NCBI GenBank assembly: GCA_007693505.1
Contig: REDL01000052.1
Coordinates: 51,748 to 75,747 of the forward strand
Length of the DNA: 24,000 bases
Source: Desulfovibrionales bacterium
Lineage (GTDB): Bacteria > Desulfobacterota > Desulfovibrionia > Desulfovibrionales > Desulfonatronaceae
Direction: 5' to 3'
This document shows positions 14,865 through 16,905 of the stretch, piece by piece. Under the pieces are notes generated by a model that searched no databases, was not told the origin of the DNA, and saw only the letters and a list, made by a program, of their open reading frames with translations. The position numbers were made by a program, and so were the translations under genes. Numbering within the stretch: the stretch's first letter is position 1; the number at the start of each line of letters is the position of its first letter.

Positions 14865-15137
14865 ATGAAACTCTCGACGCAAATCAAGCCGATCAGTTAC
14901 CTGAAAGCACATGCCGCTGAAATCGTTCGTGGTTTGGCGGATCAAGGGCACCCCTTGATCATAACCCAGAATGGGGAGGCCAAGGTCGTGCTGCAGGATA
15001 TCAAGGCCTACGAGCAGATGCAGGAAACCATGACCCTGCTGAAAATTCTGGCCCTTGGCATGAACCAGATCGAGGCAGGCAAAATCCAACCCGTCGCGGA
15101 CGTCATCCAGCAGATTCGTGATCATCAAAAGGCCTGA
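14865..15137 (+). CDS. type II antitoxin, Phd/YefM family
   Basis: ATG 14865 is preceded by GGAGG. The protein is MKLSTQIKPISYLKAHAAEIVRGLADQGHPLIITQNGEAKVVLQDIKAYEQMQETMTLL, a typical Phd/YefM fold sequence. Its stop overlaps the toxin start (TGATGATG). Confidence 0.85.
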   Translation: MKLSTQIKPISYLKAHAAEIVRGLADQGHPLIITQNGEAKVVLQDIKAYEQMQETMTLLKILALGMNQIEAGKIQPVADVIQQIRDHQKA

Positions 15138-15466
15138 TGATGTCCTTTCGGGTGCTTTTGACCCACGACGCGGTGCGTGATCTGGAAGACATCTACGATT
15201 ACATCACCGAACACGTCGCACCCGGCAAGGCCGACGACGTTCTTGACCGGACTGAAAAGGCGCTTGCCGGCCTGAGGCACAGCCCGGAGCGCGGAGTATG
15301 GCCCAGGGAGCTGTCCGCCCTTGGAATGCGTGAGTTTCGGGAGATATTTTTCAAGCCGTACCGGATCATCTACAGGATCATCGGCCAGGACGTTTACGTT
15401 ATGCTGATCGCCGACGGCCGGAGAGACATGCAGACACTGCTTCAACGTAGACTGCTGCGAGCCTGA
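15137..15466 (+). CDS. type II toxin, RelE/ParE family (ParE-like)
   Basis: 109 aa: VLLTHDAVRDLEDIYDYI...FREIFFKPYRIIYRIIGQDVYVMLIADGRRD. This matches the ParE/RelE family pattern, and it is translationally coupled to the antitoxin. Confidence 0.85.
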   Translation: MMSFRVLLTHDAVRDLEDIYDYITEHVAPGKADDVLDRTEKALAGLRHSPERGVWPRELSALGMREFREIFFKPYRIIYRIIGQDVYVMLIADGRRDMQTLLQRRLLRA

Positions 15467-15631
15467 CCACTGCTGTGGAGCGTATCCGGGATCTGAAAAT
15501 GACCAGGCGCGAGTTTGAATGGCCGCGGAACGACACGACGTCAAACGCTGGGTCATGGGCATCGACGCGGGACCAATATCTTGGAGCCGAATAATTTGCG
15601 ACAAAAAACCCTGAATGAGCTGCGCCAAGCC

Positions 15632-15659
15632 TTGAAGAACATGAGGGGCGGAATATTTT
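15632..15659 (+). promoter_or_regulatory. candidate sigma70-type promoter upstream of hgcA (TTGAAG-16-TATTTT)
   Basis: TTGAAG at 15632-15637, a 16 nt spacer, then TATTTT at 15654-15659, in the AT-richer stretch just before the GC-rich block. Called by pattern match only. Confidence 0.3.
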
Positions 15660-15726
15660 CAGCCAGACTTTCAAACTTTTTACACATGGCTCGATTTGCA
15701 AACCTGATCACGGAACTGGAAGCATC

Positions 15727-15837
15727 ATGAAACCATTACAGCCCTTTCCCACGGCCCCTCCCTTGCCCGACACGATGCCTCCTGGCCTTTCCTCCGTGGT
15801 CGGACCAAGCCCGGGTTCAGCCGCTGCTCCCTGTTGA
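15727..15837 (+). other. 36-codon Pro-rich ORF in the hgcA reading frame, ending at an in-frame TGA (leader ORF or recoded N-terminal extension)
   Basis: Hand translation: ATG 15727 gives MKPLQPFPTAPPLPDTMPPGLSSVVGPSPGSAAAPC, then TGA at 15835-15837. The frame is identical to hgcA (15901-15835 = 66). TGGAAG lies 4 nt upstream of the ATG. The ATG overlaps the stop of ORF 15515..15730 as ATGA. Confidence 0.3.
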
Positions 15838-15847
15838 GGCCCGCCCC

Positions 15848-15868
15848 CGGCTCCCGGTGCGGGAGTCG
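15848..15868 (+). promoter_or_regulatory. strong RNA hairpin (9 bp stem, GUG loop) 10 nt downstream of the in-frame TGA and 33 nt upstream of the hgcA GTG
   Basis: CGGCUCCCG (15848-15856), GUG (15857-15859), CGGGAGUCG (15860-15868). There are 8 Watson-Crick pairs plus one G-U. Coordinates were verified against ORF-track anchors 15834 and 15857. Confidence 0.5.
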
Positions 15869-15900
15869 ACGATCTGCCGGGTTATCGGATCGAGCCCTAT

Positions 15901-16905
15901 GTGGACGGGTTCATCACTACCCCGTCGGGACGCGTTCCCCGCGTCAAGGCCCATCCAACGCTTTGGGACCGCCTTGGCGACTGCCGGGCCCGGCTGGGAC
16001 TGGATCGAAACAACTATACCGTCAATCCGGGGCTCTACGCCGTGGGCGACCCATCCCCCGACGCCCCGGTGGTGGTCACGGCCAACTACAAGCTGACCTT
16101 CGACACGGTCCGCTTCGCCCTGCGCGGACGAAACGCCTGGATTTTGGTGACGGACACCCGAGGCATCAACGTCTGGTGCGCCGGAGGCAAGGGTTCCTTC
16201 AGCGCCGAAGCCGTTGCCCTCCAGGTGCGCAAAGCCGGCCTGGACCGCGTCGTGTCCCATCGTCGGCTGATTCTCCCTCAACTGTCCGCCAACGGCGTCC
16301 GACTCCGGGACGTGCGCAAGGCCACGGGTTTCGAGGCCGTCCTGGGGCCGATCCGGGCCGAGGATCTGTCGCGCTTCCTGGACCAGGGTCCCGACGACGC
16401 CATGCGGGAAGTCACATTTACCTTCATGGAACGGCTTGCCGTGGTGCCCGTGGAACTGGTCCTGGGCTGGAAGATGGTTCTCGCGGTCCTGGCCGCGGCG
16501 GCGGTATTGAGCCTCATCGGAACAGAGCTTGCCCTTGGGGCTGTTTTCCAGCGCTGGATCCTGGCCGCCACGGCCACCCTTTTCGGCCTGTTGAGCGGAG
16601 CCATCGCCTTTCCATTGCTGCTGCCCCGACTGCCCACCCGCCTCTTTTCCCTGGCCGGAGCCGGTTTAGCGGCAATCCCGGCCCTGGCCCTGCCGCTGCT
16701 CTTCCCCTCCCCGGCCTGGCCCGCGCTGGTGGGGGTGGGGTTGTGGACCATGACCGTTTCCGCCTGGACTGCCCTGAACTTCACCGGATCCACGCCCTAC
16801 ACATCGCCCTCTGGCGTGGAGAAGGAAATGCGGGCGGCCATCCCCACCCTCGCCGGTTCCACGGTGCTGTCCGTGATCTGCTTCATCTGGGGAAACCTTC
16901 AGTAA
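15901..16905 (+). CDS. hgcA: HgcA, corrinoid-binding membrane protein required for mercury methylation
   Basis: 334 aa from GTG 15901. It carries the diagnostic cap-helix motif NVWCAGGKG (aa 90-98; Cys codon 16177-16179), preceded by VVVTANYKLTFD. The C-terminal half is hydrophobic, with several predicted TM helices (LVLGWKMVLAVLAAAAVLSLIG, ILAATATLFGLLSGAIAFPLLL, LAGAGLAAIPALALPLLF, ALVGVGLWTMTVSAW, IPTLAGSTVLSVICFIW). The start is uncertain: the frame is open upstream with no ATG/GTG/TTG back to the TGA at 15835. Confidence 0.9.
   Translation: MDGFITTPSGRVPRVKAHPTLWDRLGDCRARLGLDRNNYTVNPGLYAVGDPSPDAPVVVTANYKLTFDTVRFALRGRNAWILVTDTRGINVWCAGGKGSFSAEAVALQVRKAGLDRVVSHRRLILPQLSANGVRLRDVRKATGFEAVLGPIRAEDLSRFLDQGPDDAMREVTFTFMERLAVVPVELVLGWKMVLAVLAAAAVLSLIGTELALGAVFQRWILAATATLFGLLSGAIAFPLLLPRLPTRLFSLAGAGLAAIPALALPLLFPSPAWPALVGVGLWTMTVSAWTALNFTGSTPYTSPSGVEKEMRAAIPTLAGSTVLSVICFIWGNLQ

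Follow-up and report, generated by a model that had tools for sequence, protein, structure and literature searches.

An in-frame UGA in hgcA of a Desulfonatronum genome most likely encodes selenocysteine and precedes a putative SECIS-type hairpin

The gene hgcA is present in the stretch of Desulfovibrionales DNA analysed here (24,000 nucleotides of contig REDL01000052.1, hereafter the window), and its reading frame extends upstream of the annotated start, across a single in-frame UGA codon. Our results indicate that this hgcA is most likely a selenoprotein gene, whose product would be an HgcA of 392 residues instead of 334; recoding of the UGA at 15835-15837 as selenocysteine (Sec), taken by itself, is very probable. 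A preliminary description of the same DNA had read the TGA as Sec, within a Pro-rich arm carrying a Cys-Sec pair. This reading is supported because the TGA aligns with a conserved Cys and recurs at 45 loci, because both of its flanks are under purifying selection, because a hairpin specific to the Sec forms covaries, and because the published analysis of the HgcA family agrees (Haft & Gwadz, bioRxiv 10.1101/2022.07.06.499078; J Bacteriol 205:e00259-22, 2023). Taken together, these sequence comparisons go far beyond chance.

Inspection and translation of positions 15400-16300 revealed one shared frame that includes ATG 15727, the TGA and the hgcA body, the last delimited by GTG 15901 and the stop at 16905. 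Between the preceding stop and ATG 15727-15729 there is no ATG, GTG or TTG in frame, and this ATG overlaps as ATGA with the TGA (15728-15730) that ends open reading frame (ORF) 15515..15730. From there, the frame reads MKPLQPFPTAPPLPDTMPPGLSSVVGPSPGSAAAPC, TGA, GPPPAPGAGVDDLPGYRIEPY, GTG 15901 and the hgcA body; there is only one in-frame TGA between the ATG and the body, and the read-through protein has 392 amino acids. The 21 codons that separate the TGA from GTG 15901 contain no ATG, GTG or TTG, and GTG 15901 is preceded by a weak GAG, 6 nt upstream. The preliminary description had reported this same layout, with a frame broken only by TGA 15835, an ATGA overlap, a Shine-Dalgarno-like element before the ATG and no start codon in the 21 codons, and all of it was confirmed from the sequence. 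It had also pointed out that a start at GTG 15901 makes the cap-helix Cys (codon 16177-16179) residue 93; the numbering is correct, although it does not count against an upstream start, as had been proposed, because it reflects only the truncated annotation of Pseudodesulfovibrio mercurii ND132.

The identity of the gene is clear. The read-through protein scores 365.5 bits against NCBIfam NF040863 (HgcA; cut-off 275), with the profile spanning residues 70-389 of 392, and it contains the cap-helix motif NVWCAGGK (family form N(V/I)WCA(G/A)GK), which holds the Co-ligating Cys. Likewise, its hydrophobic C-terminal half, the transmembrane domain, aligns along its whole length with HgcA homologs. 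After a spacing of 12 nt, the same as in Desulfonatronum zhilinae (locus L107), ORF 16917..17192 scores 124.4 bits against NF040864 (HgcB; cut-off 99), and has Cys73 and a CC at its C-terminus. Among database proteins, the nearest are the HgcA of D. zhilinae (90% identity) and D. sp. SC1 (87%), in both of which the annotation begins at the equivalent of GTG 15901 or further downstream, and a record with an identical protein (Logan assembly of SRR7901804; locus L108) was called as 334 amino acids.

To place the UGA within the family, we used 80 hgcA loci from GTDB species genomes, translating the hgcA frame upstream of the cap-helix motif, and then added 26 metagenome loci, D. zhilinae and L108, for a total of 108 loci plus the window. 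HgcA homologs of around 400 amino acids possess an N-terminal extension with a PFPMAPP-like motif followed by ...(E/D)xxC-C-G-P-P...(E)RPGY.... The window reads LQPFPTAPP ... AAAPC-TGA-GPPPAPGAGVDDLPGYRIEPY, and its TGA falls on the second Cys of CCG, giving the pentapeptide P-C-U-G-P (...AAAPC-U-GPPP...). The PFPxAPP motif of codons 1-36 is common to the long HgcA proteins with Cys at this column (Cys-type), and the conservation of C36, C37 and G38 reaches 90% or more in an alignment of 69 sequences, a level comparable to that of many residues of the corrinoid-binding domain. In the GTDB loci and the window, the codon at this column is TGA in 24 sequences (window included), TGC or TGT in 34, and never TAA or TAG; for the 108 loci and the window, the corresponding figures are 45, 40 and 0. 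The preliminary description had proposed to look for Cys in place of TGA in related genomes, and this is what these 40 loci contain.

The sequences with TGA (Sec-type) number 45, of which 39 are unique over 48 nt from the UGA. They come from Desulfonatronum, Desulfomicrobium-like organisms, Desulfovibrio caledoniensis, Desulfobulbales, Desulfococcus and Geobacteraceae, so the TGA is kept in Desulfovibrionales, Desulfobulbales, Desulfobacterales and Geobacteraceae, at a distance of 114 residues from the cap-helix Cys (110 in Geobacteraceae). Sec and Cys forms coexist within clades; among Geobacteraceae, for instance, the Sec form occurs at L076 and L080 and the Cys form at L050. The UGA might alternatively be read through without Sec, by a near-cognate Trp or Cys tRNA or because the codon is reassigned, which would suit a window where no Sec machinery was seen. 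We consider this very unlikely: an exclusive exchange with Cys codons is a signature of Sec, ordinary TGA stops are used nearby (the ORF ending at 15730, and hgcB), and the UGA-linked hairpin described below fits the consensus of the SelB-type selenocysteine insertion sequence (SECIS).

Selection on both sides of the UGA was evaluated by comparing the window with D. zhilinae L107, segment by segment, using the ratio of non-synonymous to synonymous differences (pN/pS). Codons 1-36 have equal length and no indels in the two genomes and show a pN/pS of 0.37, with 13 of 24 differences at third positions. For codons 38-58 the ratio is 0.07, from six synonymous and one non-synonymous differences, six of the seven at third positions, and for the hgcA body it is 0.19. 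The 108 nt before the ATG are unrelated (pN/pS 1.00, 42% nucleotide identity), with nucleotide similarity resuming at 15701, 26 nt before the ATG. Additionally, an N-terminal M-K/E-P-L-Q/H-P-F-P is common to the window, D. zhilinae and all the Desulfomicrobium-like loci. Protein-level conservation before and after the TGA, another point raised by the preliminary description, is thus borne out by both ratios and by the absence of frame-breaking indels. Together, these substitution patterns show that both UGA flanks in the hgcA of the window are under purifying selection.

The annotated starts of Sec-type HgcA vary by genome (MDGF, MATP, MDDLPGY, MAGY, MPTAAG), and are therefore artefacts of gene callers, which choose the first available start after the UGA. 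No start codon after the UGA is conserved across Sec-type loci, and the Val codon that serves as 'start' in Desulfomicrobium is GTC in the window. We also considered CTG 15874, which has GGGAG before it at 15860-15864, as an overlooked start of non-canonical type, and rejected it because conservation and selection reach well upstream of it, through the TGA.

As a side observation, the Sec-type HgcA records P0002, P0003, P0004, P0014, P0046 and L108 are cut to 330-349 amino acids at arbitrary downstream starts, and some Sec-type records are named 'CO dehydrogenase/acetyl-CoA synthase delta subunit' or 'hypothetical protein'.

It could be argued that an ancestral TGC or TGT mutated to TGA, leaving the 36 upstream codons as a decaying remnant and HgcA starting at GTG 15901. 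Gene callers do annotate this GTG, the GC content at third codon positions (GC3) is lower upstream, and a short form of the protein is active in vitro (see below). Nevertheless, a dead extension is very improbable, because 45 loci from several orders retain the TGA, the two sides show no frame-breaking indels and pN/pS values of 0.07 and 0.37, the 21 start-less codons after the TGA are almost invariant as protein, and the covarying hairpin goes specifically with the TGA forms.

This hairpin had been located by the preliminary description as a 9-bp structure with a GUG loop at 15848-15868, 10 nt past the TGA, and we confirmed it: the 5' arm occupies 15848-15856, the loop 15857-15859 and the 3' arm 15860-15868, with nine pairs, one of them G-U. 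Its stability alone is not significant with respect to shuffled sequences, and therefore the case rests on comparison. When nt 10-42 after the UGA (33 nt) were folded, 22 of the 24 Sec-type sequences gave a loop at nt 21-28; the mean minimum free energy (MFE) was -11.3 kcal/mol for all 24, versus -5.7 for 34 Cys-type sequences (Mann-Whitney p = 1.4e-5). With a strict test that demanded at least 5 bp of unbroken helix at a fixed position, a loop of 3-9 nt and a G in the first two loop nucleotides, the helix was found in 34 of the 39 unique Sec-type sequences versus one of 39 unique Cys-type sequences. The stems differ by clade (CUCCCG/CGGGAG, CCCCUG/CAGGGG, ACCCCG/CGGGGU, UCCAC/GUGGA, CCGCC/GGCGG and GAGGCC/GGCCUC), with 22 distinct stems, and the loops are GUG, GGUCCA, GUC, GGC or GGU. 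The spacing from UGA to loop is 19 nt in the window (15838-15856), which is also the modal value, present in 22 of the 38 relatives with a scored helix.

Covariation was assessed in 13 sequences of the clade of the window (alignment A3). In these, 94% of the cells are paired, versus 38-57% when the partner is slid by one to three columns, and the observed covariation score was reached by none of 500 shuffles. Three pairs changed on both sides (15849/15867, 15852/15864 and 15855/15861), all of them between third codon positions; the centre of the hairpin is the third base of codon 8 after the UGA, and so wobble bases face each other in the stem. The changes at 15852/15864 and 15855/15861 (U-A to C-G, C-G to U-A) leave the peptide APGAG unchanged, and codon 11 after the UGA, which holds 15867, is Val in the window and Ala in L107. 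With this wobble-to-wobble geometry, compensatory changes can be synonymous and the stem is free to drift, and the geometry of the hairpin probably explains why Sec is followed by APGAGV or EPRSGV in Sec-type proteins, versus PPxGPxSSP in the Cys-type.

According to PMC13188914, the bacterial SECIS consensus comprises an apical loop of 3-9 nt closed by an upper stem of 4-16 bp, 16-37 nt from the UGA to this loop, at least one G among the two leading loop nucleotides, with G or U as the usual next base, and an MFE of at most -7.5 kcal/mol. The window agrees in all four respects, with a loop of 3 nt on a stem of 9 bp, a loop that starts with G-U, a spacing of 19 nt and an MFE of -16.0 kcal/mol (nt 10-42 after the UGA), the latter being ordinary among shuffles of this GC-rich sequence. 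In all, the comparisons point to the hairpin as a SECIS-type element that is under selection of its own, independent of the protein and specific to the UGA forms.

The preliminary description had offered another interpretation, a 36-aa polyproline leader peptide followed by a regulatory hairpin in a 5' untranslated region (UTR), acting by attenuation or translational coupling, with hgcA starting at GTG 15901. A short Pro-rich ORF and then a stable hairpin superficially resemble a leader-attenuator. However, in the Cys-type homologs the 'leader', the 'UTR' and hgcA are a single continuous ORF, coding for one unbroken protein with the same motifs, and the 21 'UTR' codons evolve as coding sequence, as described above (pN/pS 0.07; six of seven differences at third positions). 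Also, the position of the hairpin is locked to the UGA and not to the downstream start, and a promoter and terminator scan of 15300-16000 detected nothing, including any T-run or terminator-like site. We thus abandoned the leader peptide as hardly credible.

Several observations weigh against the Sec reading. ARAGORN and Pfam scans of 20 ORFs did not reveal selA, selB, selC or selD in the 24-kb window. ARAGORN identified no tRNA in the whole window, hence no tRNA-Sec, and the Pfam scans retrieved housekeeping genes, a Phd/ParE pair and an ATP-grasp protein. Likewise, no literature was found on the use of Sec in Desulfonatronum, and experimental demonstration of Sec in HgcA is not reported in the literature for any organism. 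Additionally, the fold of the 66 nt that follow the TGA is not more stable than those of dinucleotide shuffles (z = 0.12), the stability of the hairpin being unremarkable because the DNA is GC-rich. No Rfam family matched the whole window at gathering thresholds, or 15600-16100 at E up to 10, although this shows only that no curated family matches the hairpin. The GC3 of the extension, counted by hand in the preliminary description as about 58-67% and below that of the body, was computed here as 0.58 upstream of the TGA and 0.67 from the TGA to the GTG, below the 0.81 of both the hgcA and the hgcB bodies. Finally, a 2024 PNAS biochemical study, which cites the Sec prediction and used the short ND132 form, found that this form, expressed in E. 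coli, methylates Hg with S-adenosylmethionine; because the short form is active, the arm is not needed for methyl transfer in vitro.

The lower GC3 of the extension is real, but it does not override the substitution pattern, and it may be caused by the SECIS constraint together with the Pro/Ala/Gly composition. As to the machinery, Desulfonatronum appears to decode UGA, because two genomes keep the UGA and the hairpin under selection, and, as in bacterial Sec insertion generally, this decoding would depend on SelB.

In the mechanism that we propose, translation would start at ATG 15727 and, on arrival of the ribosome at the UGA, SelB would bind the hairpin at 15848-15868, bringing its Sec-tRNA(Sec), and insert Sec37. 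The ribosome would then continue into the annotated hgcA body to complete the 392 residues, 58 more than annotated, and the Sec-spanning peptide in the full-length protein would be ...AAAPC-U-GPPPAPGAGVDDLPGYR. The extra 58 residues would be largely a flexible Pro-rich arm with P-C-U-G-P, joining the corrinoid-binding domain at a beta-strand that would start exactly at the annotated 'start'. In the AlphaFold2 model of the Cys-type homolog P0101, with a mean predicted local distance difference test score (pLDDT) of 85.7, residues 1-30 are disordered, the CC motif has a pLDDT of ~63, the PGY segment is moderately ordered (~75), and the residue corresponding to the annotated start is exactly the first of a beta-strand; we make no distance or mechanism claim from this model, because the confidence for the CC motif is only ~63. 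The preliminary description had suggested that the arm acquires Hg(II). By analogy with vicinal Cys-Sec and Cys-Cys pairs of other proteins, the Cys-Sec pair might chelate Hg(II), or cycle as a selenylsulfide, and together with the C-terminal Cys-Cys of HgcB it might hand Hg(II) to the methyl-corrinoid; we give an even chance to such a role in Hg(II) binding or selenylsulfide cycling and in hand-over with HgcB.

Sec decoding competes with termination in the bacterial systems studied. A selenium-gated dual output, compatible with Sec insertion and extending it, would assume that the UGA is decoded only partially: selenium-replete cells would produce full-length HgcA armed with the Cys-Sec (CU) pair, and in selenium-poor cells translation would stop at 15835, yielding a Pro-rich peptide of 36 amino acids, perhaps accompanied by weak re-initiation at GTG 15901, thus tying the level and form of HgcA to selenium supply. 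This general competition favours the idea, as do the catalytic competence of the short form in vitro and the existence of GTG 15901, with its weak GAG. However, Sec-type loci do not have a conserved start after the UGA, and so re-initiation is not conserved; overall, we find dual output unlikely. Even less probable is the broader proposal that the UGA and the SECIS make synthesis of CU-armed HgcA selenium-dependent, gating methylmercury production in most methylators. If gating were true, low selenium would lead to a stop at codon 37, with no HgcA or a poorly initiated short form without the Hg(II)-capturing arm, and the truncated constructs used in biochemistry would be without the native Hg(II) acceptor site.

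The survey of loci also uncovered variants of the N-terminal motif. In-frame TGA codons appear in contexts other than P-C-U-G-P in metagenome-assembled genomes (MAGs), as G-C-U-P-P (Desulfuromonadales MAG), V-C-U-P-E (Desulfobacteraceae MAG) and L-T-U-A-T (Syntrophales MAG). In these loci the stop lies 131 amino acids (L062) or 110 amino acids (L074, L075) before the cap Cys. A hairpin a few nucleotides downstream of the TGA is clear in L062 and L074 (-13.2 and -16.2 kcal/mol) and more irregular in L075 (-11.0 kcal/mol). From these sequences, the published 'perfectly conserved PCUGP' may fail across the whole HgcA family. In L034, L039, L044, L063, L066, L077 and L079, from Desulfuromonadales and Desulfuromonas MAGs, three to six C-C-P-P repeats with short spacers (e.g. 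GCCPPKPKPDGCCPPPKAEAPCCPPKPVTAPCCPPQ) make up a different, Cys-dense version of the arm, in place of the single CCG motif. Moreover, eight loci from Desulfobacula, Desulfotignum and Desulfobacter (L046, L048, L051, L058, L059, L061, L069 and L070) contain neither CC nor C-TGA upstream of PGY, and therefore the vicinal pair is not universal in HgcA.

The features of hgcA and hgcB are collected in Table 1. Around them, the gene order gltX-nifU-(regulator)-hgcA-hgcB-ATP-grasp is common to both Desulfonatronum genomes; the ATP-grasp protein (GSH-S_ATP/RimK-like, with a DcsG_N domain) is encoded after hgcB, at 17278-18213 in the window and 7379-8350 in L107. In D. zhilinae (L107 5552-5830), a gene for an ArsR-type helix-turn-helix regulator lies directly upstream of hgcA, its stop overlapping the extended start as ATGA, and in Desulfomicrobium-like loci the regulator (…GPRICYCADK.RLAELKNL…) stops a few codons before the extended hgcA start. 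The window retains only a C-terminal remnant of the regulator at 15596-15730 (...RFANLITELEAS; 34% identity over 50 residues, E = 0.066), with a Phd/YefM-ParE toxin-antitoxin pair (14865-15466) in place of the rest, which suggests that the hgcAB of this genome may have lost the ArsR-like regulator.

Table 1. Features of the hgcA-hgcB region of the window.
Feature	Position	Strand	Observations
Shine-Dalgarno-like GGAAG	15718..15722	+	4 nt before the ATG; inside a stretch (from 15701) resembling D. zhilinae
Start codon of full-length hgcA, Met1 of 392 residues	15727..15729	+	First start in frame; conserved N-terminus; similarity to L107 ends just upstream
Codons 1-36, N-terminal arm (MKPLQPFPTAPP...AAAPC)	15727..15834	+	Last codon is Cys36 (TGT 15832-15834)
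UGA, most likely read as Sec37, in P-C-U-G-P	15835..15837	+	Falls on the second CCG Cys; cap-helix Cys 114 residues further on
Codons 38-58 (GPPPAPGAGVDDLPGYRIEPY), coding, outside the annotated gene	15838..15900	+	pN/pS 0.07; PGY and following positions nearly invariant in the family
Putative SECIS-type hairpin, 9-bp stem, loop GUG	15848..15868	+	Fold, bacterial SECIS criteria, covariation
Annotated hgcA body, Val59 to stop; cap-helix Cys 16177-16179	15901..16905	+	NF040863; gene callers start here
hgcB, GTG start, 91 aa, ends in TGA	16917..17192	+	NF040864; Cys-type at position 73, C-terminal Cys-Cys

Sec in HgcA is already known from Haft & Gwadz, and the window adds one more ortholog, still annotated in truncated form. 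Our analysis contributes a clean Desulfonatronum ortholog, quantitative support from the substitution pattern and a characterisation of the hgcA SECIS by its fixed spacing of 19 nt, a loop with G first, pairing of wobble with wobble positions and absence in the Cys-type, for which no earlier description was found in the accessible literature. In particular, none was found in the available part of the Haft preprint (bioRxiv 10.1101/2022.07.06.499078), where candidate SECIS structures were inspected by hand and server predictions failed. HgcA makes methylmercury and, if the Cys-Sec arm is native, the protein annotated and studied so far, including the 334-aa call and the short ND132 construct of the 2024 in vitro work, would be a truncation that may be without the site for Hg(II) capture or hand-over. 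Selenium biology would then be linked to mercury methylation at translation, as Haft & Gwadz already pointed out. In practical terms, hgcA gene calls and surveys based on hidden Markov models should run through this UGA.

Vicinal Cys-Sec and Cys-Cys motifs are exemplified by the GCUG of mammalian thioredoxin reductase and the C-terminal CC of MerA. The Haft preprint (bioRxiv 10.1101/2022.07.06.499078) adds the SaoL/SaoB/SaoC and MerT selenoproteins. These proteins, as well as HgcB with its CC, share with the predicted HgcA a flexible terminal segment bearing two adjacent groups, either a thiol and a selenol or two thiols, and such a pair could plausibly serve as a soft-metal (Hg) ligand or as a redox-active selenylsulfide. 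All of them are unrelated to HgcA, where the pair is N-terminal and its role putative.

With the bacterial SECIS model of Zhang & Gladyshev, as summarised in PMC13188914, and with its prototype, E. coli fdhF, the hairpin of the window shares a coding-internal stem-loop immediately 3' of the UGA, and the small G-first loop, the 16-37 nt spacing and the MFE of at most -7.5 kcal/mol of the model. It is not similar in sequence to the fdhF element and lacks a bulged U; its loop is of 3 nt, it is centred on a third codon position, and its binding by SelB is a prediction.

The Cys-type long HgcA proteins (P0101, P0063, P0056) display the same layout, with a disordered N-terminus, a PFPxAPP-like motif, C-C/U-G-P-P, PGY and the corrinoid-binding domain. 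They differ in having TGC or TGT for TGA, no hairpin at this place, and a following peptide that is typically PPxGPxSSPxE and not APGAGV or EPRSGV.

The closest known system is the Sec-type HgcA itself, which a 2026 review also lists among prokaryotic selenoproteins (NF040863, CU motif). In bioRxiv 10.1101/2022.07.06.499078, Haft & Gwadz describe HgcA as a family of selenoproteins that includes its founding members, DND132_1056 from P. mercurii ND132 and GSU1440 from Geobacter sulfurreducens. PCUGP was invariant in 20 cases (ND132, GSU1440 and 18 others), with extended lengths of 363-400 amino acids, and all those species possessed Sec machinery. The window belongs to the same family, has a single UGA upstream of the annotated start and an identical P-C-U-G-P, its 392 amino acids are inside the published range, and it aligns with the long homologs containing CC. 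There is no essential difference between the window and the published cases, and the Desulfonatronum ortholog is still annotated as 334 amino acids. Within the family, the peptide after Sec (GPPPAPGAGVDD) and the hairpin, with its GUG loop and i+j = 48, correspond to a Desulfonatronum/Desulfomicrobium sub-type, different from the ND132 type, with GPRPDPRAGV after Sec, and from the Desulfobulbales type, with GPKPEPRSGV.

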